Translations under genes and position numbers: made by a program
In this document: positions 10,628 through 37,490 of the stretch, in pieces
How the letters are laid out: every line of letters begins with the position of its first letter
Numbering within the stretch: position 1 is the first letter of the stretch
From: Klebsiella phage KpLz-2_45
Reading direction: 5' to 3' (one strand)
Sequence record: MN871446.1
Length of the DNA stretch: 64,000 nt
The notes under the pieces: generated by a model
The model's database searches: none
The model's input: only the letters and a program-made list of their open reading frames with translations
Told to the model about the DNA's origin: nothing

Positions 10628-12595
10628 TTAGATACGTTTTAAACGCATTTCCTTATCGACATCCAACAACAGATAGTCGAAGGGATGGTTCTCTTTAATC
10701 GGGTCATACGAGCCCGGAGAGAGCATGTTTTGATACTGCTTCTCGTAAGCACATTTCACCGAGAGACTCCGTCCAGACATGATATCGGATTTCGTAGCGA
10801 AGTAACGTCCCGTCCCTTTCTTCGGTAAACGGAAATCGCCATTCTTCGGATCACGCGACATCATGGCGTAAAGGACAATTTCCACAATCGCCAGGTTAAC
10901 CGAGAACTTACGGTTCGTCATTTCCGAAATGTCTTTCAACGCCATCGCCAGAATGTCAGGGTCGGTTAAGTCATACCGTAACCGCTCTTTCGATTCCTTA
11001 CTCGACATGAAGATATTGGATTTTAACTCCATCATCATCTCGAGCGTCGAGCTATGACGTTCCGGGAATTTCAGAATACTTTCTGAAGGGTCCCAGTTTT
11101 TCAGATCAACCCGAATCTTACGCCCTAAGTTCTGGAAACCGTAATCCTTCATGTGCTGAATAAAGGCAGCGGTTAAGAACGGTTTATAAGACGAATGACT
11201 TGTAGCGATCAATTCTTCCTTGATAGTCCCTTTGACATCGCCTTGGTGAACGATGATCATGACGTCTTCTACGCCTGAAATACGGCGGAGGTCATTTTGA
11301 CTGAACTCGGTCATCGCATGAATATCGGAAAGACGTGGCAGATACGCCATATCGATTTCGATTTCCACATGATGATTCCAGATCGCCTCAGACAGCATCA
11401 GCTCAGAAATATCCGACGCATTGACCATATAGTCCTTATAGAACGGATCGATTTCAAAACCTTCCGTCTCAGCAGAGCGCAGAAGGTGTTTCGTCGAGAT
11501 AACGTCCTGAGAGACCTTTTCGTTCTGGGTTACGGTTGCAGCATGTCCCAGGTTAGTGCCTCGTTGTACGGATCGCGCCAACTGGCCCATACAGGTGCTA
11601 CAGACTACGCCGTCATCGGGGTGCCAACAACACGCCACATTCCGCAGCTGGATCGTTTTCCCTACCAGGAAGACGTCTCCTGCCTTAATGGCTTTGAGTT
11701 GTCCTGTTTCAGTGAGATAAAACTTACCGGGTAAGATATTATCCAGTTCGTTTTTCTTCACCGTCCACGGGATCGTTTCCGTACTTCCGCAATCCCCCAT
11801 CCAAATGCTCTTCACAACGTACGTAAAGAGCTGCAGCTCACGGTTATAATACTCCGTCTGCTTAACAGGATCGTCCGTCGCCTGGAGCGCTTTAGAGGCG
11901 TCTCTGGAGATCATGGCGAAGAAACTGGCCCGATGTATCCCTTCGAAGAAACCCGCATTGACGACGTTAGGAAAGATGCTCTGATCAACTTCAGAACACC
12001 ACCCTCGTTTCCCGATGACCTGGTGGAACTGCGCCATCTTCGTCTGACCGATGTGACAGGCCAGCGCCATGCTGTTCCCTTGTAAGAAGGGGTCAGTGGC
12101 AATCACACGGGAAATCACCCCGTATGCACGGTTGACCCCGCCAGGGCTCGGTTCCATGTTATAGAGCGCATTCTGGATCTCAGGGCGGTCGTAGATATCC
12201 AATAACGTCAGAACATCAACGGTATCGATATACGCCTCGCCGCGCGTCGTGAAGGCATTGTGTAACCGGTTATTGCCGCGATAGATAGCAGCCTGTAGGT
12301 TTTCAATGTCTTCATGCGGATACGCTTCGAGAACAACCTCCTTCATGCGGTTGAGGATTTTTAATTCCAACCCCGGCGAATCAAAGTCATCCCAGAGATG
12401 ATGACGAATACTGATTTGTGCGTCAGGGTAGTCTCGAAATACCTCCCAGAAATACCAACTAACAATCGTCTGCGACCAATCTGTAATGATCTCGCCATCA
12501 CTGAAGACTAAACGAAATCGATCGTGGTCGTGTTCCTTTTTCCAGAGTTCTTCCTCGGTCCAGTGTACGATGTCTTCTGCCCACACAACTTGCAT
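10628..12595 (-). CDS. Multisubunit RNA polymerase beta' C-terminal-half-like subunit (phage split RNAP)
   Basis: CCWHPDDGVVCSTCMGQLARSVQRGTNLGHAATVTQ aligns with bacterial beta' [20 protein letters not shown]...GEAIGVIAAQSIGEPGTQ (the zinc / trigger-loop region). The start overlaps the stop of the beta-like gene by 1 nt, the same order as rpoB-rpoC. Confidence 0.55.
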   Translation of the reverse strand: MQVVWAEDIVHWTEEELWKKEHDHDRFRLVFSDGEIITDWSQTIVSWYFWEVFRDYPDAQISIRHHLWDDFDSPGLELKILNRMKEVVLEAYPHEDIENLQAAIYRGNNRLHNAFTTRGEAYIDTVDVLTLLDIYDRPEIQNALYNMEPSPGGVNRAYGVISRVIATDPFLQGNSMALACHIGQTKMAQFHQVIGKRGWCSEVDQSIFPNVVNAGFFEGIHRASFFAMISRDASKALQATDDPVKQTEYYNRELQLFTYVVKSIWMGDCGSTETIPWTVKKNELDNILPGKFYLTETGQLKAIKAGDVFLVGKTIQLRNVACCWHPDDGVVCSTCMGQLARSVQRGTNLGHAATVTQNEKVSQDVISTKHLLRSAETEGFEIDPFYKDYMVNASDISELMLSEAIWNHHVEIEIDMAYLPRLSDIHAMTEFSQNDLRRISGVEDVMIIVHQGDVKGTIKEELIATSHSSYKPFLTAAFIQHMKDYGFQNLGRKIRVDLKNWDPSESILKFPERHSSTLEMMMELKSNIFMSSKESKERLRYDLTDPDILAMALKDISEMTNRKFSVNLAIVEIVLYAMMSRDPKNGDFRLPKKGTGRYFATKSDIMSGRSLSVKCAYEKQYQNMLSPGSYDPIKENHPFDYLLLDVDKEMRLKRI

Positions 12596-14865
12596 TATTC
12601 ATCCTCTTCGAGCGCGTCGTTATCTTCTTCTGGAATTTCAAACTCATCTTCCAGTTCCGGGTCTTCATCGTAGTTGATTTCTATTTCAGGAATGTCGGAG
12701 AAATCGTCTCTGTAACCCGGCTTGGTTCGGGTTGCCGCTCGGATTTTCTCTTCTTCCACTGGGGTAATGTTATCCACGTTCATGTACGCCATTTTCACCC
12801 CTGAGCAATAGAGTGTATTGTTCAGATAGTTCAGCGCCATGCTGTTACCCAGCGGGATCTCGTTACGGTCAATACAGAAATCGAGATCAACAGGGTTTTC
12901 CGCAGAGATAATCTTACTCCATTGGTATTCCTGCGCTTTCGGGTTATTGGCACGATCCAGCATATCAGCCGCCCACTTCCCGCCAACGATACCAACATAG
13001 TTTCGAATCTCCGATTCACCGAAGAGACGGAACGGGATTTTACGGAAAGGTAAGTTGAAACGCTCACGACCGGAAGGCTTGGTAGGAACACCATGCACCT
13101 GTCGTTTAGCGATATCCACTGCACCCCAGTCATGGCCGGTTTTCTCAAGGACAATGACCTTGATTTCCCCGATCATCGTTGGCTTCGTACTGGTAACACG
13201 TTCGCCCAGATCATTGATCCAGGTAACATGCTCAACCGGTTCAGGAAATGCCTCACGTAACCGCCGACATTGTTCTGCCCCCAGGCCCGGTGTGTACGGC
13301 GGCATATAGGCGAAAATCGCATCTTCTGCCACGGCATCAACGTGTTGTTTAATCCGATCAAACGACCAATTTTGCTGATCAATCTTATCGAGATAAACAG
13401 GCGTCGCCGCCCGATAATAACGACGAAGTAATTCGTAACATTCGAGATACGTCTCCTTACTCTTACTCTCCTTCAGCATGGCACGAATCGGTTTCTCCAC
13501 CCGCTGTTCGGCGATGTAATTACAATACTGCTCGATGAACATACTGGGGTTCATTCGGTTTGCAATGCTGAAACCGTCAACGATCAGGTCAGCAGTCGTT
13601 CCGTCTTCATAACGCGGCATTTTAGCACGAGGTTTCTTCGCACAGATAACGCCTTTCATGCCATAGTCAGTCGAGAGCTTATAACCGATAGTGGGGGTGA
13701 TGTCGTACATGAAAGAGATCTTCACGTACAGCGTGGGGATGCTCTGTTTCTTTAAACGGAAACGTCGTTTTCCTTCTGGGGCCGAAGTGAAGACGATTGC
13801 ATCGGTGATAAGTCGATGAAGTTTCTTCGACAACGCGGGTTCCTTTCCTTGCCCTGCTTCACGACGCAGTTGACGATAGACTTTGACGATCGCATCCATG
13901 TAACGCAATTTCGCTTTCCACAGACGTGTGATAGCATCATCTTCACCGTATTCTTTCCCGGTGAACTCCGGCATGGCATCCAGTTTATCCCCATCAGACA
14001 TCCACAGGTCGATATCAACGACTCGCGCATTCTCAACGCCTGCTTCGATAAAATATTTCTCATCGAAATAGTAGTCGTAATCTTCCATGGCCTCCGCCGT
14101 CATTTCGACACAACCTAACATGTCGTCATATTCGCGCAGCGCCATTAAGAGTCCGTCTTTACGAATCTGCTCACCTGGTAACGGAAGAGGACGATAACGT
14201 TTACTGTTCCCGTAGGTATTGATCGGATACTTACCTTTAGGAACAATAATCGTGACCTCGCCAAAGCCCGTGGTCTGATTCTCCTTACACCATTCTTCTG
14301 ACACCAGAAAACCGTCTTCGGTCACAGCGTGATGACTTTGGAAGGTTGTTTTGGTACGGGTAGCATAAATGTAATCGCCGTCTGGCGTTACCCCCGGAGA
14401 ACGATTGAGTCGAACTCCTCGTTGAAGAATCTCGCCAGGTCGCATGAGTTTTTGATTCTCTATGACCGGGACGAATTCAAAGCCGAAGCTAGTGTGATGA
14501 GAACAATAGGTATCGTAGTCCAGGTAGTCGTATTCACGCGTTTCCATGTTACGTACGATAACAATCTTTTTCGGGTTACTTTTAAAACTCTCGGAACCTC
14601 GACCCACCTCAAACTTGTCGATTACCGCAATCACTTCCGCAGGGAACTGAACGCGACAACCGAAAGTATATTCGGCATACTCTTTCTCAACACCCACGAA
14701 AAAGCGGGGTCGATTGATCCCTTTTGTGATCAGTTTTTGCTGTATCTGCGATGCCAGCATAACCAAACGAGAAGGCGATGTACAAACTGCCCAGGGTCCG
14801 AGGTGAGTGGCTGTCCCTATCAGATCAACATCCATTTGATGTTCATTAGGTAACTTTTCTCTCAT
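12595..14865 (-). CDS. Multisubunit RNA polymerase beta C-terminal-half-like subunit (phage split RNAP)
   Basis: YGMKGVICAKKPRAKMPRYEDGTTADLIVDGFSIANRMNPSMFIEQ aligns with [46 protein letters not shown] of E. coli beta. SHHAVTEDGFLVSEEW aligns with GYNFEDSILVSERV. RLFGESEIRNYVGIVG aligns with RFGEMEVWALEAYGA. The tail is acidic. Confidence 0.75.
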   Translation of the reverse strand: MREKLPNEHQMDVDLIGTATHLGPWAVCTSPSRLVMLASQIQQKLITKGINRPRFFVGVEKEYAEYTFGCRVQFPAEVIAVIDKFEVGRGSESFKSNPKKIVIVRNMETREYDYLDYDTYCSHHTSFGFEFVPVIENQKLMRPGEILQRGVRLNRSPGVTPDGDYIYATRTKTTFQSHHAVTEDGFLVSEEWCKENQTTGFGEVTIIVPKGKYPINTYGNSKRYRPLPLPGEQIRKDGLLMALREYDDMLGCVEMTAEAMEDYDYYFDEKYFIEAGVENARVVDIDLWMSDGDKLDAMPEFTGKEYGEDDAITRLWKAKLRYMDAIVKVYRQLRREAGQGKEPALSKKLHRLITDAIVFTSAPEGKRRFRLKKQSIPTLYVKISFMYDITPTIGYKLSTDYGMKGVICAKKPRAKMPRYEDGTTADLIVDGFSIANRMNPSMFIEQYCNYIAEQRVEKPIRAMLKESKSKETYLECYELLRRYYRAATPVYLDKIDQQNWSFDRIKQHVDAVAEDAIFAYMPPYTPGLGAEQCRRLREAFPEPVEHVTWINDLGERVTSTKPTMIGEIKVIVLEKTGHDWGAVDIAKRQVHGVPTKPSGRERFNLPFRKIPFRLFGESEIRNYVGIVGGKWAADMLDRANNPKAQEYQWSKIISAENPVDLDFCIDRNEIPLGNSMALNYLNNTLYCSGVKMAYMNVDNITPVEEEKIRAATRTKPGYRDDFSDIPEIEINYDEDPELEDEFEIPEEDNDALEEDE

Positions 14866-14938
14866 GACAGACTAAACCCCTTTATGCTTCTTTCACGATA
14901 GTTAAAAATAGATTTAGACTCAGTGTCTAAACAGCCTT

Positions 14939-14956
14939 CAATAGAGTGATATATTC
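14939..14956. promoter_or_regulatory. Conserved intergenic motif copy in a divergent region
   Basis: caatagagtgatatattc, identical 18-mer to the copy near 49433. Confidence 0.45.
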
Positions 14957-14982
14957 TTTAAGTCAGTTGGAGAAACCTTGTT

Positions 14983-15333
14983 ATGGCAGAACCTTTAATA
15001 ACGAAATTGAGGAACCCAGGACAACCTCAATATTACACGGAAAGTTGGCTGAATTGTGTTGAAGATCATTTACTGTTCCTTCAAGACCCAGGGAACGGCG
15101 AAACTTACCGTCCCACGGGAATGGAGCGAGCACGGTATAAAGGAAGGTTCTACGCTTTCCTCCGTGACGTAGCGAAGGTAACACAACCACAATACTTTTA
15201 CCCTTATCTTCGTGCTAACAACATGACATCACCTGATCAATTCGGGGAAAAGTTTGATTTGCTCATCTTCCCTTCAATCAATAAAATCGAGCAGATATAC
15301 ACGCGGTATACGTCGTCTCTGCCGACGAATTAA
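14983..15333 (+). CDS. Hypothetical protein (plus strand)
   Basis: ORF with a conserved intergenic motif 25 nt upstream and a hairpin terminator downstream. Confidence 0.4.
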   Translation: MAEPLITKLRNPGQPQYYTESWLNCVEDHLLFLQDPGNGETYRPTGMERARYKGRFYAFLRDVAKVTQPQYFYPYLRANNMTSPDQFGEKFDLLIFPSINKIEQIYTRYTSSLPTN

Positions 15334-15371
15334 AAGGTTTTCTATATCATTAGACCCAGCCGTTGAAAATG

Positions 15372-15420
15372 AGAAAACAAAAAATAAAGAGAAGAGGCGA
15401 AAACCTCTTCTCGTTTATAA
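15372..15420. terminator. Bidirectional hairpin terminator between convergent genes
   Basis: Stem gagaagagg/cctcttctc with A-rich and T-rich flanks. Confidence 0.55.
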
Positions 15421-15424
15421 CGAA

Positions 15425-15655
15425 TTAATTGGGTTCGAAAACATCGGGCGAGTAGCTAAGAAAGTTGTCTACAGCACCGACCGGTATTTCCAGAAACGCA
15501 GCAATTTCTTCGTTGAGATAACCCCGTTCAGCCGCCGATACCACCAAACGATGTAAGTGATTATCGATCGTTGTCCGGTAGAGATTAACTTGTGCCTCGA
15601 CGTCGTCGAGGATAAGTTTCATCTGCGAATCTTCTTTTGATTGACGCATTTTCAT
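15425..15655 (-). CDS. Small HTH protein (sigma region-4-like), paralog of the partial ORF at 1..283
   Basis: AAERGYLNEEIAAFLEIPVGAVDNFL aligns with RARGLSDEEIAHVLECPVGDVEKVI of the first ORF. Confidence 0.45.
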   Translation of the reverse strand: MKMRQSKEDSQMKLILDDVEAQVNLYRTTIDNHLHRLVVSAAERGYLNEEIAAFLEIPVGAVDNFLSYSPDVFEPN

Positions 15656-15669
15656 CTCCTTAAAAGAAC

Positions 15670-15706
15670 AGATTGAGAGAGGGCAAATGCCCTCTCTCGG
15701 TTTTAT
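15670..15706. terminator. Hairpin terminator downstream of the RD-tail protein gene
   Basis: 10-bp stem gagagagggc/gccctctctc with a GGTTTTA flank. Confidence 0.5.
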
Positions 15707-15709
15707 GTC

Positions 15710-16963
15710 TTAACGATGGAAACGGTTGCGAGAACCAAACGCGCTTCGTTCTCCGAATCCGCTTCCGCGACGGTCGTAGTCACGATCATCATAACGGTCG
15801 AGCAAGGAGCGAGGACGTGAACCACGACGGTCATCGTCATAATCACGATCGTCCCGGTCGTCATGAGAAACACGACGCAATAAACCACCGCCACGGCGAT
15901 CGTCTTCGTAACGACGATCATTACGACTCCCGCCGATTAAACTCCGCGGTTCATCACGACGCTCATCTGTTGAACGAAGTACTTGCCGACGGCCAGAGGA
16001 AACTTCACGACGTTGTTCGCGTTCTTCACGAATACGTTCGCGGTTTTCCGCTTTAGCCTTAGGCTTCGCCAGCTCGTCTTCGTTCGCTTCGCCTTCGTTA
16101 CCTTCCAGCGGCGGAATGTCATTACGATACTCCGTCAGCTCCGCCATGTTCTTAACCCAGTTCGTTCCGATCAACAGACCTTTCATTTCTTCAAAGTCTT
16201 CCTGGAATACTTTCGTGACCTTATTCAGATCAAACGCCAGATTTGCAAACGCCATCATCAGCGAATGGAAATTTGGCGCGACCGATGAACGACTACCATA
16301 GCTGTATTCGTCAATCGATTTATCGAAGTTGGGGAAAATGTGACGGAGCAGGTTAAACAGCGCTGCACGGTCACGAACGCGGAAGGTGACATCGAAGATT
16401 TTCTTATCTTCGTTATTCTCCTGGTCCGCAATCGGGAAGGTGGTTACCGCCACGCGAGAATACTCCTCGCCTTTCCATACGCCGCCACGTTTGATGAAGA
16501 TGTTGATAAACGCGTTATCGCCTTTAAAGGTCAACTTCGACATCATCAATTTACGGGTATCTTCAACCGTACGTTTATCGGCTTCCGGTAAGAGGCGAAG
16601 ATAGTCGCGTTGCTCCGGCGTCAGTTTTGCATGGCGATCTGTGTCCGCGGCCAGTTCGGTCAGGAAACAGATCATCGTTGCCCCAACCTGATAGAGTCGG
16701 TTACAAACACAGAGCGTCAAACGTTCCAGTACTTCGGACTTTTTCCGTTGGGTGTTTTCGGATAGCGGGTGGAACGGGATAGTATTTTCCCAATCCGGAT
16801 TTTTCAGCCATTCGTCGGTCGGAATAACCAACTGACGTTTGTTCATGGTGAAAGGTGCTCTGACGCCCAATGCTTCAAAATAGACGCCGCCCTTCTCATC
16901 CACCTCAAAACCTAACGCGGTAAGAATCTCGCGATAGATTGTAGTCAACTTTTTCTTGTTCAT
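15710..16963 (-). CDS. Protein with a ~290-aa globular domain followed by a ~125-aa Arg/Asp/Glu/Gly-rich disordered tail (RD/RGG-like)
   Basis: The tail reads ...RRDEPRSLIGGSRNDRRYEDDRRGGGLLRRVSHDDRDDRDYDDDRRGSRPRSLLDRYDDRDYDRRGSGFGERSAFGSRNRFHR. The gene has its own upstream and downstream hairpins and E. coli-optimal codons. Confidence 0.55.
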   Translation of the reverse strand: MNKKKLTTIYREILTALGFEVDEKGGVYFEALGVRAPFTMNKRQLVIPTDEWLKNPDWENTIPFHPLSENTQRKKSEVLERLTLCVCNRLYQVGATMICFLTELAADTDRHAKLTPEQRDYLRLLPEADKRTVEDTRKLMMSKLTFKGDNAFINIFIKRGGVWKGEEYSRVAVTTFPIADQENNEDKKIFDVTFRVRDRAALFNLLRHIFPNFDKSIDEYSYGSRSSVAPNFHSLMMAFANLAFDLNKVTKVFQEDFEEMKGLLIGTNWVKNMAELTEYRNDIPPLEGNEGEANEDELAKPKAKAENRERIREEREQRREVSSGRRQVLRSTDERRDEPRSLIGGSRNDRRYEDDRRGGGLLRRVSHDDRDDRDYDDDRRGSRPRSLLDRYDDRDYDRRGSGFGERSAFGSRNRFHR

Positions 16964-16991
16964 TTCTTTTCCTCAAAGAGAATCTTATCGT

Positions 16992-18515
16992 TTAAAAACG
17001 GCCGTTCCCGCCCCAACTGAAACCAGTCAACGCGTCATCGATACGGTTTTCTTCCATGGAGAATTGACTGTCTGCCAATTCGGTGATCGTACTTTGCAAG
17101 TCAGTGACGATCTTAGATGCCAGATCGTAGTCATCGGTTTTCTGCGGTGAGATAAGACCATCGCAATACATCGGAATAACGTAAAGCTCTTCCGGTTGGC
17201 CGTCTAACGACAGATTGATTTTAATGTCCGTGATTGCAGAACAGTCGATCGTACAGGTAACGATCATCTGACCGTTATGGGAAACGGGTTTCGCTACTTG
17301 ATACTCAATCAACTGACGAACCGCGTTCACCGCGCCCGAGACGTTCGAACCCGGAATCAACGGACGTTCACCCCAGACCTCAACCTGCATTTCTCCGATA
17401 TCGTTATCATTACTGAAAGCGATCATGGCATCAGAGATGTGGTTGGTCATCAGGATAGAAGGTACGGCTTGAGAGATGATACGAACGGCTACTGCATCAA
17501 CACCTGCACCGCCGAGGTTGTTCCCACGTCCACGTTCGTAGCTTTTATAACCACGCTCTTCGACCTGTTTCGGATTGATAAACTGCGTGACGGGCTGACC
17601 ACGATAAGTCTCTGGCCAATCTACCATCCGCGCTAAGTCTTCGAGGCGAATGACGCCTTCTTGATAGAAGTCGCATTCTTGCAGGAACTGTGCAAAGAGT
17701 GGGTTATCTTCTGTTTTGCTCAGGTTAACTGCTCCTGCCGCCAGTTCCGATTTTGACATCTCTTCCCCTGCTAACGCAGAGTCGGGGTTCCAGCTCGGCT
17801 GCTCCATTGTCTCCGCCAGTACACCCGCCTTCAACACCGTCGAGATGTAGTCCGCCGCATTATTCTCACGACGAGAACCCATCTTGATATCGCCCACCAG
17901 ATCAGCACGGGTATCAATAATCTGATCGCCGCCGGAATGGTAACGCTGATAATCCTGGATACCTACGTCATTGAAGATATCGTGCGGACGAATTAAACGC
18001 TCGCCACGGTCACGGCGAAGACCACGCTGGCCTTCGTTACGACCCCGACCACGGATAACGTACTCAGAGGATTCAATTCGTGGACGCAGAATACGGCCAC
18101 GGCCCGTATCGAGAACGGTGTCACGGATGATGATGGAGTTATTGATGAAGAGATCCATTTGGTCATCCAGTTCACCGCTGACCATGCTGACGCCGTTATA
18201 ATCGGTGAACCCGGTCAGTACCTGACGTTGGGTAGATCCCGCATAGTCAGAGATCAGGAACGTGATAATGAAACTCAAACGTTTCTCACCCCAACCCCCG
18301 GGGATATCAATAATCGAACCGCGTTTTGCAGTCATGCTGATCGCATCGTTAACGGCTGTAGATAACGAAATCGAGTTGATGTTTCTGCCGCGATCAGTTG
18401 CTTTGACAAGACGGTCTTTCACGCCATTGTCGAAATGAGTCGTGAATGAGCTACCGTATTGGTCATCGTAATTAGAAGTGGTGAAGAAGAATGCACTAAT
18501 TACTGTCGGTTTCAT
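16992..18515 (-). CDS. Hypothetical protein (507 aa), possibly virion or nucleus associated
   Basis: Long ORF with an RG-rich internal patch (RGRGRNEGQRGLRRDRGER). Confidence 0.5.
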   Translation of the reverse strand: MKPTVISAFFFTTSNYDDQYGSSFTTHFDNGVKDRLVKATDRGRNINSISLSTAVNDAISMTAKRGSIIDIPGGWGEKRLSFIITFLISDYAGSTQRQVLTGFTDYNGVSMVSGELDDQMDLFINNSIIIRDTVLDTGRGRILRPRIESSEYVIRGRGRNEGQRGLRRDRGERLIRPHDIFNDVGIQDYQRYHSGGDQIIDTRADLVGDIKMGSRRENNAADYISTVLKAGVLAETMEQPSWNPDSALAGEEMSKSELAAGAVNLSKTEDNPLFAQFLQECDFYQEGVIRLEDLARMVDWPETYRGQPVTQFINPKQVEERGYKSYERGRGNNLGGAGVDAVAVRIISQAVPSILMTNHISDAMIAFSNDNDIGEMQVEVWGERPLIPGSNVSGAVNAVRQLIEYQVAKPVSHNGQMIVTCTIDCSAITDIKINLSLDGQPEELYVIPMYCDGLISPQKTDDYDLASKIVTDLQSTITELADSQFSMEENRIDDALTGFSWGGNGRF

Positions 18516-28623: not shown

Positions 28624-29718
28624 ATGATCTCAGCTTTCGAATTTCTAAACCGTCAATCCGTGAAGACGTTTTTTCCGGGACAACTCACCTTGCTGCGCAA
28701 CAATGCCGACATTAATTTAAAGAACATTAAACAACATTACCGTAATAGCATCCGTGCTGTTGAGAGTGATCATATACTGATTCAGATACTTCAACATTTA
28801 CCGTCACGGGTAGACATGAACGATGAACAGTATTATCGATTCTGCCACTCCGCCAGTAAACTGACACACAGGGCGTTGAACCTCAATACGGAAACCGTGC
28901 TTTCTGGTAAAGCCAGTAAACCATGGTTTTACGGTCAAGGTATGACCGAGTTCTACATCGTTGAGGAAAAAGATCTCCCTTATCGATTCGACGCAAAGAA
29001 CTACTGGCAAGAACTTATTCCAGTACGCCCAATTTCGCACAATCTGACAGGGCTTTCTTTTAACGCCCGTGACGGGCAGTACTTTAGTCACTATAAAGGA
29101 AACGCTTTCCTGTCTATCGACATCGGTCTTCTGGCAGTCCAGTATCGGCACTGGTCGCAGTTTAACGTCGGTACAGAAGCGAACCCGCATCCCGTTTCTA
29201 TCAACCAATTTGTTTATCAGTACCCTTTAGTCAACATGATCGAAGAGGACATGAATTTTTGTTTCTTCAATCGTCTTCGGTTGTCGACAGGGTATATCCC
29301 GGTTAACGATGACGCCGCACGACACGGCTTGGCAATCTACGATTTACGTCCACTGGTTGATAAAGTCTGGGAACAGTGGTTACAACGCGCCAGAAGCGCT
29401 CCGCGGCGCTTCATTGACCTTCCGGCACAAATCCCCGGGTTATTTACAGAAACACTTCTTGAAGCGATTACGATCCCGGATATCTTTTTCAACCGTCAGA
29501 ACCTCGGTCTTTACACATTGGCAAATTTACCGTACTTAAGTACCCTGTCCCGTCTTTCTGGTGAAACAGGGTCTAAAGACAACGGTAGTGTAAAAACTCA
29601 ACTGGAACGTTGGTACGCGCGTTTTGTTAACGGAGGTTACCTGACACCGATAACGGGGATTAATCCTCAAGATACTCTACAGGTTCTGTTGGACGAAGTG
29701 CTGATTCCACTTCGTTAA
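28624..29718 (+). CDS. Hypothetical protein (plus strand), divergently transcribed from the chimallin gene
   Basis: ORF downstream of a 285-nt AT-rich region with three TATAATAG-like elements. Its 3' end overlaps the convergent 738-aa gene by ~59 nt. Confidence 0.45.
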   Translation: MISAFEFLNRQSVKTFFPGQLTLLRNNADINLKNIKQHYRNSIRAVESDHILIQILQHLPSRVDMNDEQYYRFCHSASKLTHRALNLNTETVLSGKASKPWFYGQGMTEFYIVEEKDLPYRFDAKNYWQELIPVRPISHNLTGLSFNARDGQYFSHYKGNAFLSIDIGLLAVQYRHWSQFNVGTEANPHPVSINQFVYQYPLVNMIEEDMNFCFFNRLRLSTGYIPVNDDAARHGLAIYDLRPLVDKVWEQWLQRARSAPRRFIDLPAQIPGLFTETLLEAITIPDIFFNRQNLGLYTLANLPYLSTLSRLSGETGSKDNGSVKTQLERWYARFVNGGYLTPITGINPQDTLQVLLDEVLIPLR

Positions 29719-31876
29719 AGTCAGAGAAAGCATCCTCACGAGAAATTTGATCAAAGACCAGTTTAGATTGGTCTTTATCAAAGAGGTAGTATTCCAGTGA
29801 CTCAAGAACCAGGTAGAAAGGTGACATGGCGCTGCCGATAATTTTACGAATGTTTGTCGCCTCAAGGATATCCTCTGGAATCCCGATTGACATGACAATA
29901 CTTTCTGGCAGCAGGATACGACCCAAATAAGTCTTATTCTTCGCTGCCAGGAATTGTCGCATTCGTTTCGCCATTTCCTGATCTTTCCAGTTCGCTAACC
30001 ATTTCTCCGTTTTGGTTTTCGTATCGTGGATAATACTGAACGACAACGCTGAGTATGGCGGCGGTTCAATAAGACCAAACTTCGGCGCAAAGACTTCTTG
30101 CCACAGTTCGTAGTTCAGATACGGCGTATTCTGTTCTTCGGTCTTCTTAGTGTACCCTTCCTCTTCTTTAACACGTGCCGCTTTAAGGTACGTGGTCTCC
30201 CCTTTACGAATCGATTCGTAGATCGTATACTCCCACCGGGCTACCCACCGTAAGTAACGGCTCAGTTCCAACATTTTCCCTTCCGTAACACTGTCGACAA
30301 TCTCTTCGATCATCAAATCAAGATCTTTACGTACTCCGGCTGGTGAGTTGGAAGCAATGAGCTCTACGCCTTTCTTCTCTCGGTCTTCGATATAGACCCC
30401 TTCTTGTACGCGTTTGTTTGCCGCATAGTGCTTAGCACGACTGGTCAACATGAACACCGGGAAAAGGAATTCGTTCTTCATTGCCAGACGGAAGACTTCT
30501 TTCTCGTCCTGAACACCCATGTTTACGGTCATGGTAGCAAGGTTATGCGTGGTCGTCTGCGAGACAAGGAACGCAATCCCTTCAGCTAGAATGATGTTTT
30601 CTTTCGTTAGCAAATCATTATCAGAGTACCAACGAATCCAATCCTGAACCGTAAAGATAGCGGAGTCGGTATCAGACCCTACACCACTGCGTCTAACGGC
30701 ATGGGGGAAGTCAGAAATCAGGAACGGGATGTTTCTTGACATCAGGAACGTATCGATGATTTCTTTATATTTGTCCAGCGTCTGGTAAATGAGTGCACAG
30801 GTGGAACCTAAACGCCAGTAATCGGCTTTAGCAATAACTTCTTCGTGGAACGGGTTTTTATCGCCAATGATTTCCGGGAACATAACCGTGATCTGTGCGA
30901 TGGTGTCTTCATCGACAAACTTCATCCATCCTTCGTAGTCAGGTACCGGCGTTTCTGCTGGAGTGACTAAACCACGAATCAGATCCCTTACAATCGCCTC
31001 GTTGAACTGACGAATATGATAAAGGTCGCCCATGTAAACGAACGCTGCTCGTTCGTAATCGCTACAGCCTTTCAGGAAACGTTTTAAATTGCGGTCTCCC
31101 CCTTCTGATCGCCAGTAGAGGTCAGACGAATACGACAGTACCGCTAACGTTTCTTCAACCGACGGGATATGCAGATTAAACTTCTTAACGGTATTTTCTA
31201 CTTTTGCCCAATCGGTCAGTTCAAGAATACTGGTCAAGTTAGCGTAGACAACATCAGGTCGCCAATAGTGGCGAGAGCCAGACAATAAACGGTCATTGTT
31301 GGAGTTGGCAATACCGTTGGCAATACGACAGCAACTTGTCAATACCGGGTGCGTTGAGCGGTCGTAAAGCGGTGAGTGCTCAGAACGGTGGTTACCGGAG
31401 ATGGCGTTGTTCAGAATCTTTTTGTTGTTCTGATTGTTGTTGTGGAAGGTTGCCTTAATAAAGTTACCGACTTTCTTCGCTTCAAACATTTCATGTTTTT
31501 CGGCGGAGCGCTTTTTCAAGTTACCTTTGATATATTCAGAGAGTAACGATAACTTTTGGTGCGGCGGTAACACGGTCGTGAACGTAGGTGCCATTAACCA
31601 TTCGTTATCGAGAATGTCTTTGAGGTACTGTGAGAAAGGTACCATAATCGGTTTTTGATCCAGATTCTCATCGCGTTCCAACATGCAAAAAACAGGATCG
31701 GTCACGCCGTTATCCGGGTTTTTCAGTTCCTCGACAACAAAGTCACGACATTCTTCGAAAGGTCTTCCAGTGCTGCGTTGTATGAATAAAGCAGTTTGAA
31801 TAATGTACGACTCGTGCACGCCAAGGTCTCGATGGTAATCCTTAGCGGTGCGCGTAAATGGGTTAGAAACTTTCAC
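29660..31876 (-). CDS. Large hypothetical protein (738 aa)
   Basis: Long ORF containing GVGSDTDSAIF, which resembles polymerase family-B motif C. Other family-B motifs are not found in the right order. Confidence 0.5.
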   Translation of the reverse strand: MKVSNPFTRTAKDYHRDLGVHESYIIQTALFIQRSTGRPFEECRDFVVEELKNPDNGVTDPVFCMLERDENLDQKPIMVPFSQYLKDILDNEWLMAPTFTTVLPPHQKLSLLSEYIKGNLKKRSAEKHEMFEAKKVGNFIKATFHNNNQNNKKILNNAISGNHRSEHSPLYDRSTHPVLTSCCRIANGIANSNNDRLLSGSRHYWRPDVVYANLTSILELTDWAKVENTVKKFNLHIPSVEETLAVLSYSSDLYWRSEGGDRNLKRFLKGCSDYERAAFVYMGDLYHIRQFNEAIVRDLIRGLVTPAETPVPDYEGWMKFVDEDTIAQITVMFPEIIGDKNPFHEEVIAKADYWRLGSTCALIYQTLDKYKEIIDTFLMSRNIPFLISDFPHAVRRSGVGSDTDSAIFTVQDWIRWYSDNDLLTKENIILAEGIAFLVSQTTTHNLATMTVNMGVQDEKEVFRLAMKNEFLFPVFMLTSRAKHYAANKRVQEGVYIEDREKKGVELIASNSPAGVRKDLDLMIEEIVDSVTEGKMLELSRYLRWVARWEYTIYESIRKGETTYLKAARVKEEEGYTKKTEEQNTPYLNYELWQEVFAPKFGLIEPPPYSALSFSIIHDTKTKTEKWLANWKDQEMAKRMRQFLAAKNKTYLGRILLPESIVMSIGIPEDILEATNIRKIIGSAMSPFYLVLESLEYYLFDKDQSKLVFDQISREDAFSDFNEVESALRPTEPVEYLED

Positions 31877-31924
31877 GCTATCGTCCTATGTAATCGGTCT
31901 TCTACAGGAATAGTACGGTCACTG

Positions 31925-31983
31925 AAAAAAGAAAAAAAGAAAAGATAACCTTCTCCTGTAACCTTTCGGTTACAGGAGAAGAG
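31925..31983 (-). terminator. Strong terminator before the small-gene array
   Basis: 14-bp stem cttctcctgtaacc/ggttacaggagaag, then a long T-rich run on the minus strand. Confidence 0.65.
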
Positions 31984-31988
31984 AATAG

Positions 31989-32411
31989 TTAACTGGTGAC
32001 GATGGTGAAATTGTTGAAGCCTGCGCTGTTAATCGCCAGCCGGATCTTTTCAATATCGCCTGTACCAATCCCGGGAATAGTGACAAGGGCATTCACTGTC
32101 TCAACAACGTTGATCGTATCAACTTTGATCCAGGGTAATCCGATGACGCGTTCTGTGCCGTCTTCTAAGGCCAATACCAACCAGTTGTAAGAACGGGCAT
32201 TGTCTTCAACGCTACCCGATGGCAGAAGAGGATAAACCTTCGCGTGCTCTGCTTCCGGGTCAATACCGAATTTAGTAGCACCTCTGGCCGACACAATGTC
32301 AGTCGGAACCACGTTACGGAAAACATCCCCGTAAAGCGCAGACGGATAAACCTGAAAGGTCACCGTGGAGTTCAGTGTAAATTTACCGAGGATGAGGTCT
32401 GTAGACGTCAT
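31989..32411 (-). CDS. Small hypothetical protein (first of an 11-gene small-gene array)
   Basis: ORF preceded by a strong 14-bp hairpin terminator. Confidence 0.45.
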   Translation of the reverse strand: MTSTDLILGKFTLNSTVTFQVYPSALYGDVFRNVVPTDIVSARGATKFGIDPEAEHAKVYPLLPSGSVEDNARSYNWLVLALEDGTERVIGLPWIKVDTINVVETVNALVTIPGIGTGDIEKIRLAINSAGFNNFTIVTS

Positions 32412-32771
32412 TTAATTTTCTCCCGATTCGAAAAGCAACATTAACGTAGTAGAGTCGAAGTACTCGAGGTCTACATAACGAAAGGTTGTTTTACTGGTGA
32501 TTTCTTCCACTCGTTCTTTCAAGGTTTCGTGGGTGAGAAAAAGATGACCAGCAATCTCACCGTGTTCAATAGAAGGAACAGTAGTTTTCAATCCGCTGTC
32601 AATGACTTCCAATACGAGCTTCCTGGTCGAGTCCTTTAGGTATTCGATGTCAATAACCGTATCATCATCTTCATCGCATTGGACTTCGTCTAAAAGACCC
32701 TGATAAAAATAACTAAAGATTAAAGGGAGTCGTACAAGGGAAGTAAGAACTTTTATTTTCATGTTCTTCAA
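32412..32771 (-). CDS. Small hypothetical protein
   Basis: ORF. Confidence 0.4.
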   Translation of the reverse strand: MKNMKIKVLTSLVRLPLIFSYFYQGLLDEVQCDEDDDTVIDIEYLKDSTRKLVLEVIDSGLKTTVPSIEHGEIAGHLFLTHETLKERVEEITSKTTFRYVDLEYFDSTTLMLLFESGEN

Positions 32772-33141
32772 TCCTTAAACCAAGAGAATAACTTCCCGTG
32801 TACAGGAATAAGTTCTCAAGATGATAACGTTTCTCTAATAGGAAGGGATGGACTTTCTCCATCTCACGGTAAAGTCGAGTATGGAGACAATCGTAGTTTT
32901 CCAGAATGATTTCCATGCCGTACTCGAGTAAACCAGGATCACTCGCAATAAAGAATCCTTTTAAGACCTCGGGGTGCATCGCCATTTTTTCCGGTTCCAA
33001 AATATCTTCGACAAAAAGCGACGAAAGATCACGTGCTTTTATCCAGACATCTCTTGGCATATTATCTAGGAGCGTCGATAAACCAGAATAAAAAGACTGG
33101 CAGGGTAAAACAACCAACGTTGCATTTTTGTTTTTCACCAT
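32713..33141 (-). CDS. Small hypothetical protein (start probably internal)
   Basis: ORF overlapping its neighbour. Confidence 0.4.
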   Translation of the reverse strand: MVKNKNATLVVLPCQSFYSGLSTLLDNMPRDVWIKARDLSSLFVEDILEPEKMAMHPEVLKGFFIASDPGLLEYGMEIILENYDCLHTRLYREMEKVHPFLLEKRYHLENLFLYTGSYSLGLRIEEHENKSSYFPCTTPFNL

Positions 33142-33599
33142 ACCTCCCGGCTAAGGTCCTCCACTACAAATGAGATTGCGTTGTTTCGTAAGAGTACGTC
33201 GCCGATATCGATATCTTCGTGATATCGGAGTTGACTCCTCTCGAAGGACAACAGTAAATCGGTCGCAATCACTTCAGCCATATCTTCAATGTAACAAAGC
33301 AACCGGTGTCGAGTACCCCTATCTAACCGTAACTGATCGCTGGGATCATCTGCATCAGGGACAAAGAAAAGATCAATCGTGTCATCGAGTCTTTCCGATG
33401 CCTCCTGCTGACCGAAGTGCTTAACGTCCAATACATAAGCGATGGTACAGCCGATAAAGTCAGTCACTTCAAAACGAATTTTGTTTCGGGGGATATAACG
33501 ATTAAACCCATCGATATATCGACTGAAGAAAAGGTGAAAGTTTGACGTTGGCCAATCCTTCACCGTAAAGATTAAGATAGTACGAAAGAAACGGGACAT
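33135..33599 (-). CDS. Small hypothetical protein, member of the VIDIKHF paralog family
   Basis: Contains AYVLDVKHFGQ, shared with other array members. Confidence 0.45.
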   Translation of the reverse strand: MSRFFRTILIFTVKDWPTSNFHLFFSRYIDGFNRYIPRNKIRFEVTDFIGCTIAYVLDVKHFGQQEASERLDDTIDLFFVPDADDPSDQLRLDRGTRHRLLCYIEDMAEVIATDLLLSFERSQLRYHEDIDIGDVLLRNNAISFVVEDLSREVW

Positions 33600-34009
33600 T
33601 AAGATCCTCTGCGAACAGTCAGTTGGAAGGCGATGCCGTGGTGGCGTAATTCTACAAAATCAATACGGGGGGAACGTGAAAAGTTACTTCGTATCTCCCG
33701 TCGATAATCACGATAAAACGAGACGAAGAGTTCTTCTGCTGTCTCTATCAACTCTTGCGTCGTAACATCCGGCATCTTAGCGTGCGGATACGAACGTAAG
33801 AAATTCTCGATTTCAACTCTGATACGCCGCGTACCCGATAACGATAGATTTTCTTCGTCGGTGCCGATAATGAAGTCGAATATCATTTGCAGAACAAGTC
33901 GGCGATAGAGTAAATCGCAATACATCAGTTCGTGCAGTATGGCAGCGGTCTCTCTTCGATAAGGCAAAACAAAAAGACGTGTCGTAGTTTCAGTCACTGA
34001 CGGTAACAT
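33599..34009 (-). CDS. Small hypothetical protein
   Basis: ORF. Confidence 0.4.
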   Translation of the reverse strand: MLPSVTETTTRLFVLPYRRETAAILHELMYCDLLYRRLVLQMIFDFIIGTDEENLSLSGTRRIRVEIENFLRSYPHAKMPDVTTQELIETAEELFVSFYRDYRREIRSNFSRSPRIDFVELRHHGIAFQLTVRRGS

Positions 34010-34457
34010 AGAGGTCTCCTCTAACGAATCTTACGTTTCTGATTTGATCAGGACTCAAAACGATATCTTTCATGGCTAAAGTCTTCCTTGATATCTTCGA
34101 GCCTAATAATTGAATATCGATGTAGAAATTTCGCTTGAATTCTTCTTTGAGCTTCTCGTCCAGATGTTCCATTCCGTCGGAGCACAATAAGTTATCTAAG
34201 ACCTTTTCCGCTTCTTCGTTAGCCTTGAAAAAGAAGGGCATGAAGAAGGTTCTTTGGTAACGTGATAAAGAAAATAGAAAAGCCGGGAGAATAATCTCCC
34301 GGCTGTGTATTGAGTATAGGTTTTCTATTTTCTTTATTTCTGACGCGTCCCAATGCAGGTCATAGATGAAGGTTTGTGAATAATCTAATCGACCGTTGGT
34401 CACGTGAGATCTCCCATCCATAATAGTCAATGATACGTTCTTCGCTTGTTTTCTCAA
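33990..34457 (-). CDS. Small hypothetical protein
   Basis: ORF. Confidence 0.4.
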   Translation of the reverse strand: MRKQAKNVSLTIMDGRSHVTNGRLDYSQTFIYDLHWDASEIKKIENLYSIHSREIILPAFLFSLSRYQRTFFMPFFFKANEEAEKVLDNLLCSDGMEHLDEKLKEEFKRNFYIDIQLLGSKISRKTLAMKDIVLSPDQIRNVRFVRGDLYVTVSD

Positions 34458-34782
34458 GAAACGTTTTGATTTCTTGTAGCGACAATTCCAGAAGTGCGTC
34501 AGTATCAGATAAATTTAGTTCAGGCGTAGAAAAAACGGAAAGTAACCGCTGTTCCATCGTAGAGTAACCATAAATCAGTTTCTCCAGACTAAAGAGCAAA
34601 AGTAAACCATACGCCTCGCCAAACGTCACCGGCTCTAAAGTGTCAGAGAAAAAGCAACGGTAGATCTTCTCGAGGCGAGGTCGTAATAACGCGATGTCAA
34701 TAATCTCTATTTTGTTCTTCACGTTTTTCTCGTTGTATCCTTTCCCAATCCCGAATTCGCCAATCGCCAAGGTTCTCGACAA
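34360..34782 (-). CDS. Small hypothetical protein, paralog family member
   Basis: KIEIIDIALLRPRLEKIY aligns with RYVIDIDYLARRLSSILY of the next ORF. Confidence 0.45.
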   Translation of the reverse strand: MSRTLAIGEFGIGKGYNEKNVKNKIEIIDIALLRPRLEKIYRCFFSDTLEPVTFGEAYGLLLLFSLEKLIYGYSTMEQRLLSVFSTPELNLSDTDALLELSLQEIKTFLEKTSEERIIDYYGWEISRDQRSIRLFTNLHL

Positions 34783-35224
34783 TCAATGCGTTGTTTCTGA
34801 CTTCGACCACCACAATTTCATCCCAGAACCTATTTTTTCGTATCCCCATGTCACGAAAATACTCTACCGCGAACACGATAAAGATATCGATAACTTCGCG
34901 GTAGAGTTCTTGGGACGGCTCATCCACGATCTCTTCGTTGTACGGATTAAAACCAATAGGCTCTAACGTGTAACCTTTAAACCAACCACGAATAGCAGCA
35001 TCGTCGTCCCAACATTCCCAAGGATATTTAGCGTCTTTATTGATGGCATTCCAAAAGAGACGGAGGGCGGTTTCCTTAAGATCTTCTACACGAAGGTTCT
35101 TGTCAGCGTACCGGTCGATAACACTGTGTTGGCGACGGACTGAATAGAGAATGGACGATAGTCGTCTGGCGAGATAATCAATATCAATAACATAACGCAT
35201 AATAGAGACCTTATCGATAAACAA
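34697..35224 (-). CDS. Small hypothetical protein, paralog family member
   Basis: Contains YVIDIDYLARRLSSILY. Confidence 0.45.
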   Translation of the reverse strand: MFIDKVSIMRYVIDIDYLARRLSSILYSVRRQHSVIDRYADKNLRVEDLKETALRLFWNAINKDAKYPWECWDDDAAIRGWFKGYTLEPIGFNPYNEEIVDEPSQELYREVIDIFIVFAVEYFRDMGIRKNRFWDEIVVVEVRNNALIVENLGDWRIRDWERIQREKREEQNRDY

Positions 35225-35615
35225 GATAGGTACGTGAGTTCATCCGTTCCGTGTAACATTCACCGTAAATACCGTATCGATCCCATTGAGAACGAAGATC
35301 GCTAAGGATTTTTTCTAATACGCCTGTATTTTTCATTTTTTCAATTTCTTCCTGAAGAGACATGTAAAACGATAACTGGTCCCGATAATAAGGATCATCG
35401 GGAATCGTTTCAAAATCGCTTTCCAGCGGGTCAATGTTGTTCGAGTAATAAATCTCAATGAACAGTTTGTTATAATCTTTAGCTTTTCCTTTTTCCCAGT
35501 GGTACGCGGTAGAAAGGAAAGCGTCTATAATCTGATCCCGCCAGAGACCCTTATAGCCGTCGGTGAAGACCTTAAGCGCCGGGGGGATTTCGAAGAGATA
35601 TTTTTGCACTGCCAT
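35211..35615 (-). CDS. Small hypothetical protein
   Basis: ORF. Confidence 0.4.
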   Translation of the reverse strand: MAVQKYLFEIPPALKVFTDGYKGLWRDQIIDAFLSTAYHWEKGKAKDYNKLFIEIYYSNNIDPLESDFETIPDDPYYRDQLSFYMSLQEEIEKMKNTGVLEKILSDLRSQWDRYGIYGECYTERMNSRTYLVYR

Positions 35616-36049
35616 AAATCAGGATTCCTCTGACGAAACTCTTCATCATCTACCCAAACCATTAATGCGTTCCGTTGTATATCGAGCGATTCGATATGAA
35701 GCAGATTAACCGGAAGTTTCAATGGTACGCCACCGTACTCTTTTTCCAATACCCTGGCTACTTGCCATATCTTCTCTGTCTCCCAATGGTCATTATCAAT
35801 AATTAAATACTCAGGCGGAATCGTGTTATACGTCCGGTCTAACCAGTGGGCTAAAATCCTTAACCGATAGAACCGATCCATTGTCGGTGTCATATCGAGA
35901 AAATGCTTAATATCGATGACAATCAACATGGTCTTCAGTTCCCAGTGTAATTTCAAAATGATTGTGTTGGAAAGAAAAGTCGAGGACACGATAATGACGC
36001 GGGACACCCTCCAATTGAAAGAGCGTAGTGAGTTCCTTTTCTTTTTCAT
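35525..36049 (-). CDS. Small hypothetical protein, paralog family member (true start probably the internal Met near 35929)
   Basis: Contains MLIVIDIKHFLDMT; the upstream part overlaps the next gene. Confidence 0.4.
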   Translation of the reverse strand: MKKKRNSLRSFNWRVSRVIIVSSTFLSNTIILKLHWELKTMLIVIDIKHFLDMTPTMDRFYRLRILAHWLDRTYNTIPPEYLIIDNDHWETEKIWQVARVLEKEYGGVPLKLPVNLLHIESLDIQRNALMVWVDDEEFRQRNPDLWQCKNISSKSPRRLRSSPTAIRVSGGIRL

Positions 36050-36356
36050 TAACTCGATTGAAGATCGCTTCGATCATTGCGTTAAAATCACGTTTATCTC
36101 TACCCGGTAGCATTTTGCTGGGTTCTACCTTATCGGTTAACAAATAGATCCCTTGCGCCCAATGCTTTCTTTCCCGGAAATGAAACCACGTCATCCAGGT
36201 CGCGTAGAAAATTTCTTTCACGGTGAAAATACCGTGATAAGGTGAATTAATCCAGTAAAAGATCTTTGGGATCTCGCCTTTAACAATCATGACGTCACCA
36301 GACTTCCTGTAAGTCATTCTAAGCCTCTTTTTACTGTCAGTAGTACTATCTATCAA
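35907..36356 (-). CDS. Small hypothetical protein
   Basis: ORF preceded by the conserved promoter-like motif. Confidence 0.4.
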   Translation of the reverse strand: MIDSTTDSKKRLRMTYRKSGDVMIVKGEIPKIFYWINSPYHGIFTVKEIFYATWMTWFHFRERKHWAQGIYLLTDKVEPSKMLPGRDKRDFNAMIEAIFNRVNEKEKELTTLFQLEGVPRHYRVLDFSFQHNHFEITLGTEDHVDCHRY

Positions 36357-36396
36357 ATAAATTGATAAACCCGTACAAAGCGATTACAACTATGTT

Positions 36397-36413
36397 CAAT
36401 AGGGTAATATATG
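36397..36413 (-). promoter_or_regulatory. Conserved intergenic motif copy
   Basis: caatagggtaatatatg, between the phuZ terminator and the next gene start. Confidence 0.5.
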
Positions 36414-36427
36414 TCCTATTTCTTTTC

Positions 36428-36474
36428 CAACAAAACAAAATAAAAAAGACGGAGCGGGAAAACCCCGCTCCGTT
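36428..36474 (-). terminator. Terminator after phuZ
   Basis: 10-bp stem acggagcggg/cccgctccgt, then T-rich. Confidence 0.65.
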
Positions 36475-36521
36475 GATGATCTTAAATGATTGAAGCAGAT
36501 AAAAGTCCTACATACTAACGA

Positions 36522-37490
36522 CTAGAGTTCCATCCCGTCGCCCTGAACATCGCCACGGATAAAGTTCTGCGCAGCCTTGGACTTCTTATCGCGTGCAGCG
36601 CGACGTTGTTCGTAGTCGTCAAACGTTTGGCGAAGTTCCATTAAGATCTCATTCAGTCCATCTGTATGAATGACAAAATAAAGCGAATCTTCCCCTGTAC
36701 GTTTACGGGTACCGAACGTGTTATAGTCCGCTGGGATAGTACCGGCTACCGGCTTGTTGTCGCCGTAGAGTTCCGCAACTGAAATAGGTGCGTTAACGCT
36801 CACTGCATCATCACGGTCCTGGAAGACGTCAAGGAGACCGAGCTCCGGGCTTACGCCTGCACCAAGAACGGGTTTCGCCCAGGTCAGTACGTCCGCAGAA
36901 TCCAGTCCATGATGTTTCCCGGAATAAAGATCCAGAACGGCGCGGATGGTAGCGATCATGATCGCATCGACTTCGGCGTTGCGCAGGTTGTTCTCATTGC
37001 TCTCGTAACAGACGTTACAGAACTGATTGTTCTTGATCGCAATGTTACGCAGCGACGAAATAGTCTTCATGGTGTTTTCGGTGGTATTACCCGATTCTGT
37101 CGAACCGACTAAAAAGACCAGCACCGCTTTATTCTGCGCATAAAGCGCTTCGATCAGTTTCGGACCAATGACCGAACCGCTGCCGCCGGAGGCGGAGAAG
37201 ATCAGAATGTTGAGATCGGACGGCTTCAACTTAAAGAGAATGTCGCTGATGCTTCGGTTCGTGACGTCGTAGTTGGTTTTACGGATTTTCCCTGCGCCGT
37301 CTACGCCCTCGAGGAAATACCATTTGTCAGGGTCTTGAACAGACCGCTCGGAAACGTTGGAACGACTACCGTCAACATACGCTTCTTTGACGTTAGCAAG
37401 TTCAGAAAGATCGGTGCGCATGAGTTTAGTGAGGATGTCGATACCCGCACCACCTGCGCCGTAAATAGTTACTGTGTTATTCGATGACAT
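36522..37490 (-). CDS. phuZ: PhuZ, phage tubulin/FtsZ-like GTPase
   Basis: N-terminal GAGGAG and the tubulin signature loop SASGGSGSVIGPKL (GGGTGSG-like); 322 aa with an acidic C-terminal tail. Confidence 0.8.
   Translation of the reverse strand: MSSNNTVTIYGAGGAGIDILTKLMRTDLSELANVKEAYVDGSRSNVSERSVQDPDKWYFLEGVDGAGKIRKTNYDVTNRSISDILFKLKPSDLNILIFSASGGSGSVIGPKLIEALYAQNKAVLVFLVGSTESGNTTENTMKTISSLRNIAIKNNQFCNVCYESNENNLRNAEVDAIMIATIRAVLDLYSGKHHGLDSADVLTWAKPVLGAGVSPELGLLDVFQDRDDAVSVNAPISVAELYGDNKPVAGTIPADYNTFGTRKRTGEDSLYFVIHTDGLNEILMELRQTFDDYEQRRAARDKKSKAAQNFIRGDVQGDGMEL

Follow-up and report, generated by a model that had tools for sequence, protein, structure and literature searches.

A phiKZ-like nucleus gene block in a Klebsiella pneumoniae jumbo phage points to membership of the Chimalliviridae

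The gene set of nucleus-forming jumbo phages is best described in phiKZ and PhiPA3. The non-virion RNA polymerase (RNAP) of phiKZ consists of the beta'-like proteins gp55 and gp74, the beta-like proteins gp71-73 and gp123, and gp68, which is sigma-like and an integral subunit (PMC8287921). PicA (gp69) belongs to the chimallivirus core genes; it is an import factor that associates with the shell and is essential (PMC11087766). ChmC has been identified with PhiKZ gp67 and typically has an N/G-rich tail; for PhiPA3, a gp63/gp64 association is described, gp64 is reported to be shell-associated, and the conserved cluster has already been drawn for this phage (PMC11077065). Among phages of Klebsiella, the shell (gp083) and tubulin (gp094) genes of phiKp24 (vB_KpM_FBKp24, below FBKp24) were published in 2021 and group with those of Serratia phages 2050HW and PCH45 and Erwinia phage PhiEaH1 (PMC8386662). 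Here we analysed a stretch of 64,000 nucleotides (nt) of Klebsiella phage KpLz-2_45 (MN871446.1), hereafter called the window. It very probably belongs to the ~300-kb genome of a Klebsiella pneumoniae jumbo phage in the family Chimalliviridae, and it has the conserved phiKZ-like nucleus gene block. The genes that carry this reading are as follows (lengths in amino acids, aa):

26438..28339, minus strand: chimallin (ChmA), major nuclear shell protein, 633 aa, phiKZ gp54 homologue by Pfam, PHROG, PDB sequence matches and fold
24900..26354, minus strand: non-virion RNAP beta' N-terminal subunit (beta'N), 484 aa, homologue of phiKZ gp55 plus gp56.1 by 7ogp_A, phrog_2987 and motif
18544..20085, minus strand: fifth, sigma-like non-virion RNAP subunit, 513 aa, phiKZ gp68 homologue by 7ogp_B and tblastn
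12595..14865, minus strand: non-virion RNAP beta C-terminal subunit (betaC), 756 aa, phiKZ gp71-73 homologue by 7ogp_C and Pfam
10628..12595, minus strand: non-virion RNAP beta' C-terminal subunit (beta'C), 655 aa, phiKZ gp74 homologue by 7ogp_D and phrog_3015
36522..37490, minus strand: phage tubulin PhuZ, 322 aa, phiKZ gp39 homologue by phrog_4733, PDB and BLASTP
16992..18515, minus strand: PicA import factor, 507 aa, phiKZ gp69 homologue by tblastn and BLASTP
15710..16963, minus strand: phiKZ gp70 homologue, 417 aa, by BLASTP (E 4.8e-31) and phrog_3520
20180..21016, minus strand: probable ChmC, nucleus-associated RNA-binding protein, 278 aa, positional equivalent of phiKZ gp67 by weak similarity, tail and position

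An initial annotation had flagged the chimallin candidate, three RNAP pieces and the tubulin as hallmarks of a nucleus-forming phage with its own multisubunit RNAP. All five open reading frames (ORFs) were found at the coordinates given there, on the minus strand, and each was named correctly. The list was incomplete, as the gp68 homologue, PicA, the gp70 homologue and the ChmC-like gene had been overlooked. The gene identities thus support a phage of the nucleus-forming type, and the nucleus itself would follow from these genes.

The 633-aa protein matched the Pfam chimallin family PF25677 over residues 233-598 (75.8 bits, cut-off 27, E 2.8e-21), and phrog_4795, annotated as nuclear shell protein, spanned residues 7-614 (E 1.3e-44). 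In a phmmer search against the PDB, the matches to chimallins were weak but specific (E 7e-7 to 1e-4). BLASTP against phiKZ gp54, one of the comparisons proposed in the initial annotation, gave no match at E <1e-3, and hhalign to gp54 with a shallow profile reached 94.9% probability for the C-terminal domain only (residues 233-595). A deeper profile was therefore built. Two word-indexed homologue searches with the shell protein returned the same five close relatives and nothing further. When 1.84 billion cluster representatives were searched exhaustively with HMMER, 427 relatives were recovered at E <=0.001; of the 150 relatives listed, nearly all were 580-700 aa long. Searched against the PDB, the resulting 118-sequence family profile matched chimallin entries only, over their full length, with E 1e-105 to 1e-119.

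An AlphaFold2 model based on the same 118-sequence alignment had a mean predicted local distance difference test score (pLDDT) of 85.8 and a predicted template modelling score (pTM) of 0.84. The disordered termini proposed earlier were recovered as tails with pLDDT <50 (residues 1-71 and most of 599-633); short strands were predicted at 590-593 and 620-622. Foldseek of the model against the PDB gave nine significant matches, all of them chimallins (201phi2-1, PhiPA3 PhuN and Goslar; E 1e-22 to 1e-27), with target-normalised template modelling (TM) scores of 0.72-0.81. The solved chimallins 201phi2-1 gp105 (7SQQ-S, 8IGG), Goslar (7SQT-V) and PhiPA3 PhuN (8FNE) share the two-domain fold over ~550 aligned columns, and are similar in length and in their flexible N- and C-terminal segments. 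Chimallin tails are known to dock on neighbouring protomers. An HK97 fold or another fold for the 633-aa protein was ruled out by the same search, in which the best non-chimallin match had E 0.04 and TM 0.08. Judged from its sequence and its modelled fold, the 633-aa protein is a chimallin, and it would assemble into a closed lattice around the phage DNA. The shell gene, called codon-optimised in the initial annotation, also had the strongest codon bias among the 32 genes measured in the window: its effective number of codons (Nc) was 31.6 (mean 51.3, standard deviation 5.6), followed by the tail sheath gene with 40.3, and its GC content at third codon positions (GC3) was 0.617 versus 0.518 for the window genes.

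Several other genes of the nucleus module were recognised. The 322-aa tubulin matched phrog_4733 'tubulin PhuZ' (E 3.9e-82), the PDB PhuZ chains 3zbp, 3j5v and 3r4v (E 1e-18 to 1e-20) and 9pm9 (3.7e-25), and phiKZ gp39 in BLASTP (E 1e-21). Its Pfam scores were 27.6 bits for TubZ_C_2 (cut-off 27) and 27.2 bits for Tubulin, below the cut-off of 33. The glycine loop expected of a tubulin was present as GAGGAG and SASGGSGS, aligned with GGAG and GGASGS of phiKZ PhuZ. The 507-aa protein matched PHIKZ069 in tblastn (E 4e-25, 92% of the query) and in BLASTP (E 1.5e-30), which identifies it as PicA. The 417-aa protein corresponds to phiKZ gp70, of which PhiPA3 gp64 is, judging from gene order, the counterpart. 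The 278-aa ORF is probably ChmC: pairwise BLASTP against gp67 gave E 0.003 with 24% identity over 205 aa, its N/G-rich C-terminal tail ends in FDNDVP where that of gp67 ends in FDEDMP, and its codon bias was strong (Nc 42.9). Pfam detected nothing significant for the ChmC-like ORF or the gp70 homologue. In the record of the near-identical phage vB_kp_MJ359 (MJ359), the 278-aa ORF bears the label 'attachment protein', probably a misannotation of a ChmC homologue.

A number of results weigh against reading the window as part of a nucleus-forming phage. These are the null BLASTP result and the partial hhalign coverage of the shell protein described above, its strong divergence from the solved chimallins (14-19% identity in the Foldseek alignments) and the weak similarity of the ChmC candidate. 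In addition, the gp123-like beta N-terminal subunit and a second RNAP set, whose absence the initial annotation had noted, were not found in the window by PHROG scans or annotation, a result that concerns the window and not the phage. Finally, the searched literature held no experimental observation or microscopy of a nucleus, either in this lineage or in phiKp24. The low identity of the shell protein and the silence of the literature on nucleus formation in this clade would fit a lineage that has chimallivirus homologues but builds no closed nucleus, with the shell homologue in another or reduced role. We consider this very unlikely. PicA, the gp70 homologue, the ChmC-like gene, PhuZ and the non-virion RNAP, an accessory set that would make no sense without a closed shell, are all there and intact, and PicA is reported to be conserved in all ChmA-encoding phages (PMC11087766). 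Moreover, the shell protein retains the full two-domain fold with flexible tails, and its gene has the strongest codon bias of the window. A phage that builds a nucleus remains our preferred reading.

The RNAP genes were assigned as follows. The 484-aa protein matched 7ogp_A (gp55) with E 1.4e-64 and phrog_2987 with E 4.8e-144, and BLASTP aligned it with gp55 (E 3e-60) and gp56.1 (E 4e-5). The DFDGD motif reported earlier was seen in its catalytic DxDGD loop as NCDFDGDQ. The 756-aa protein matched 7ogp_C (gp71-73; E 4e-77), aligned to residues 1062-1171 of E. coli beta, and scored 38 bits against Pfam RNA_pol_Rpb2_6 (cut-off 23.4), which represents the second double-psi beta-barrel; BLASTP aligned its residues 10-402 with gp71 and 416-694 with gp73. 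The 655-aa protein, in which the bridge helix and trigger loop region would be expected, matched 7ogp_D (gp74; E 4.6e-67) and phrog_3015 (E 2e-184), and aligned weakly to residues 643-823 of E. coli beta'. All checks that the initial annotation had proposed spoke for its reading; BLASTP of the shell protein with gp54 gave no match. The stop codon of the betaC gene and the start codon of the beta'C gene overlap by one base (TAATG), as had been reported. The 513-aa protein matched 7ogp_B 'PHIKZ068' over residues 36-504 (E 2.6e-31) and gp68 of phiKZ in tblastn (E 9e-30). Since the 484-, 756- and 655-aa proteins match the chains of the phiKZ structure (7OGP) with the published roles, and also those parts of cellular beta and beta' that one would expect, the labels beta'N, betaC and beta'C given in the initial annotation are correct and belong to one enzyme. 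By these similarities, the window is predicted to encode four of the five subunits of the non-virion RNAP: beta'N, the gp68-like subunit, betaC and beta'C.

The three RNAP pieces might instead belong to the virion-packaged RNAP, or be a mixture of both enzymes, given that the two enzyme sets are distant paralogues and that the public annotation calls all three simply 'RNA polymerase beta subunit'. This is extremely unlikely. The best PDB match of each piece was the corresponding chain of the phiKZ non-virion RNAP (E 1e-64 to 1e-77), with the non-virion RNAP of AR9 next, and the same block holds the homologue of gp68, which is specific to the non-virion enzyme. Gene order also matches that of phiKZ gp55 and gp68-gp74. 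Further genes with the generic annotation 'RNA polymerase beta subunit', namely MJ359_140, _167, _198, _209 and _210, lie in MJ359 outside the region equivalent to the window, and RNAP-annotated genes of 543 and 1495 aa adjoin virion genes there. In phiKZ, insertions with HNH-endonuclease genes (gp56, gp72) split gp55 and gp71-73, whereas the beta'N and betaC genes of the window are single uninterrupted ORFs. An Rfam scan of the window returned no family at the gathering score, hence no match to a group I intron family. There is a negligible chance that the 633-aa protein serves as a capsid protein or another structural component of the virion. Its high expression, judged by codon bias, and a head-protein gene adjoining it on the other strand would fit such a role, but no HK97-like or other fold matched, and in MJ359, which is near-identical, a different locus (132823-135108) is annotated as the major head protein.

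The preferred reading, a nucleus-forming phage with a non-virion RNAP, suggests a mechanism that we take from homology with phiKZ, PhiPA3, 201phi2-1 and Goslar. Chimallin would be produced early and in very large amounts, and the extreme codon bias, strong ribosome-binding site and own terminator of its gene are consistent with this. Its flexible segments at the N and C termini would then let it self-assemble into a protein lattice around the replicating phage DNA, and PhuZ filaments would position the shell compartment. The five-subunit non-virion RNAP, a product of early genes (PMC4666361), would be imported with the help of PicA and transcribe middle and late genes inside the compartment. 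PicA would provide selective protein import, and ChmC may aid the exit of mRNA. Nucleus building in Klebsiella, as well as the assembly, localisation and expression timing of these components, is what we infer from the genes.

The block as a whole is collinear with phiKZ. In 10628..38407, 15 of the 31 ORFs matched phiKZ proteins from gp74 back to gp39 at E <1e-3 and in the same order. The gp39-gp75 block of phiKZ is arranged as here, relative strands included: PhuZ, DNA polymerase, gp52, gp54, gp55, SbcD gp65, gp66, (gp67), gp68, gp69 PicA, gp70, gp71-73, gp74 and helicase. The shell/beta'N and betaC/beta'C pairs follow the order of gp54/gp55, the pairing proposed in the initial annotation, and of gp71-73/gp74. 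The homologues of gp52 and gp42 lie on the opposite strand, as in phiKZ, and the position of the helicase gene corresponds to that of phiKZ helicase gp75, which comes after gp74. Proteins of the window and of phiKZ were 22-36% identical, and the shell protein was seen only by profile or fold methods. On these sequence comparisons, the core feature of the Chimalliviridae (ChmA, PicA and the surrounding conserved block) is present in the window. The remaining features are:

29660..31876, minus strand: divergent family-B DNA polymerase, 738 aa, phiKZ gp50 homologue (Pfam PF20286 divDNApol, E 6e-233; BLASTP gp50, E 9e-128)
28624..29718, plus strand: virion head protein, 364 aa, phiKZ gp52 homologue (phrog_3938, phrog_14481; BLASTP gp52, E 9e-18)
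22137..23258, minus strand: SbcD-like nuclease subunit, 373 aa, phiKZ gp65 homologue (phrog_100, E 1.2e-36; BLASTP gp65, E 1e-61)
21069..21914, minus strand: phiKZ gp66 homologue, 281 aa (BLASTP, E 1.7e-26; phrog_3229)
8378..10561, minus strand: DNA helicase, 727 aa (phrog_16 'DNA helicase', E 8e-30), equivalent to phiKZ gp75 by position only
26387..26416, minus strand: intrinsic-terminator-like hairpin between the shell and beta'N genes (13-bp stem, 4-nt loop, T run)
28340..28623, minus strand: putative leader/promoter region of the shell gene, 284 bp (AGGAG ribosome-binding site, three CTATWWTAT motifs, two hairpins)

The phiKZ record notes gp52 as 'structural head protein'. The 3' ends of the convergent DNA polymerase (minus strand) and head-protein (plus strand) genes overlap by 59 nt (29660..29718), and the gene calls in MJ359 are identical.

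The shell gene had been described as terminator-flanked. This held downstream, where the hairpin was found (26416..26387, minus strand) and where the equivalent site in FBKp24 is annotated as 'terminator'. It did not hold upstream, where the hairpins at 28505..28488 (minus strand) and 28549..28565 (plus strand) have no convincing T tract. The CTATWWTAT motifs at 28582, 28525 and 28468 (minus strand) are spaced by exactly 57 bp and are the only three copies in the window; TATG occurs within the first and the second, and a hairpin comes after each of these two. The shell-gene leader of FBKp24 has the motifs conserved, and there the second hairpin persists although both of its arms have changed (AATCGG/CCGATT versus GTTGA/TCAAC). 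The number of copies in the window was not above chance (3 versus 1.6 expected), so that only their placement is suggestive. Matches to sigma-70-like promoters around the shell gene were not above chance either (4 versus 5.7 expected). The leader motifs might form an array of tandem promoters or RNA structures, specific to this clade, through which both phage RNAPs could drive very high, sustained chimallin expression, a tentative proposal that we regard as rather unlikely.

Another motif, TATATTAC, occurs three times in intergenic DNA on the coding strand (8255..8262, 20118..20125 and 36404..36411, all minus strand). The sites lie 33-55 nt ahead of the starts of three genes: one for a GNAT acetyltransferase, the gp68-like gene and the gene that comes next after PhuZ. 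Again, only the placement is suggestive, as the count in the window was not above chance (3 versus 1.3 expected). A literature search on the motif was uninformative. It may resemble the core of the phiKZ early promoter.

Between the DNA polymerase and PhuZ genes, 31989..36356 (minus strand) holds eleven genes of 119-175 aa that lie close together or overlap, of which only the first (31989..32411) had a phiKZ match, gp49. No paralogy to each other was detected among these eleven ORFs and the eight ORFs of 38442..43949, and the window contained no tRNA genes. A low-GC patch at ~4000..6000 (0.39 versus about 0.46) holds a 323-aa ORF (4440..5411, minus strand; GC 0.38) with no PHROG match and no significant Pfam match. 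About 20% of 2300..8300 was absent from five of eight near-identical genomes, and the patch looks like a strain-variable accessory insertion.

Over the 25 kb of 10628..35600, the window was 98.7-99.3% identical in nucleotide sequence to eight deposited ~300-kb genomes, those of KpYy_2_45, KpXa_1, KpLz_1_41, KpSz_1, KpZh_LPS_45, KpZh_1, vB_kp_MJ359 and LPKP23, all isolated on Klebsiella pneumoniae. None of the eight records was identical to the window. KpYy_2_45 reached 99.9% identity over 2300..8300, and the shell protein was 99.8-100% identical between the window and these phages. Gene identities, shell fold, gene order and this near-identity to deposited genomes are what the analysis shows. 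At these positions, MJ359 already has genes labelled 'nuclear shell protein' and 'tubulin PhuZ' and three labelled 'RNA polymerase beta subunit'. Six of the eight records are without annotation; these near-identical genomes (GenBank MN871447-MN871453) are filed as 'Serratia phage Kp...', although their host field reads Klebsiella pneumoniae.

As a discovery these results carry little weight: the genome is public, MJ359 names the shell and PhuZ genes, the genes of the sister phage have been out since 2021, and its genus has been placed. Their use is practical. Annotators can place this Klebsiella lineage in the Chimalliviridae despite records that are unannotated, labelled 'Serratia' and unclassified, and names can be given to four further genes of the nucleus module, those of the gp68-like RNAP subunit and PicA as well as the gp70 homologue and the probable ChmC. 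Nucleus-forming phages withstand DNA-targeting defence systems, which is relevant if the therapeutic use of such phages against K. pneumoniae is considered.

The window lineage, KpYy_2_45 / KpLz_1_41 / MJ359 / LPKP23, is sister to the genus Maaswegvirus (phiKp24). Compared with the window block, phiKp24 and Centimanus had 77-81% nucleotide identity with 85% of the block aligned, which separates them from the window lineage as a species and possibly also as a genus. Their gene order is that of the window, and identity to the window proteins is 80% for their shell protein and 86-88% for their homologues of PicA and gp68. The neighbours found by tblastn were likewise Serratia phages 2050HW and PCH45 and Erwinia phage PhiEaH1. 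Maaswegvirus (Kp24, Centimanus) sits under Chimalliviridae in the NCBI taxonomy, and its move to this family was ratified by the ICTV in 2025 (PMC12451628). In contrast, the window lineage is unclassified at NCBI, where KpLz_1_41 and MJ359 have no family assignment. The reading is thus correct, but both the system and the genome were known before, from the public genome, the MJ359 annotation and the 2021 report on phiKp24.

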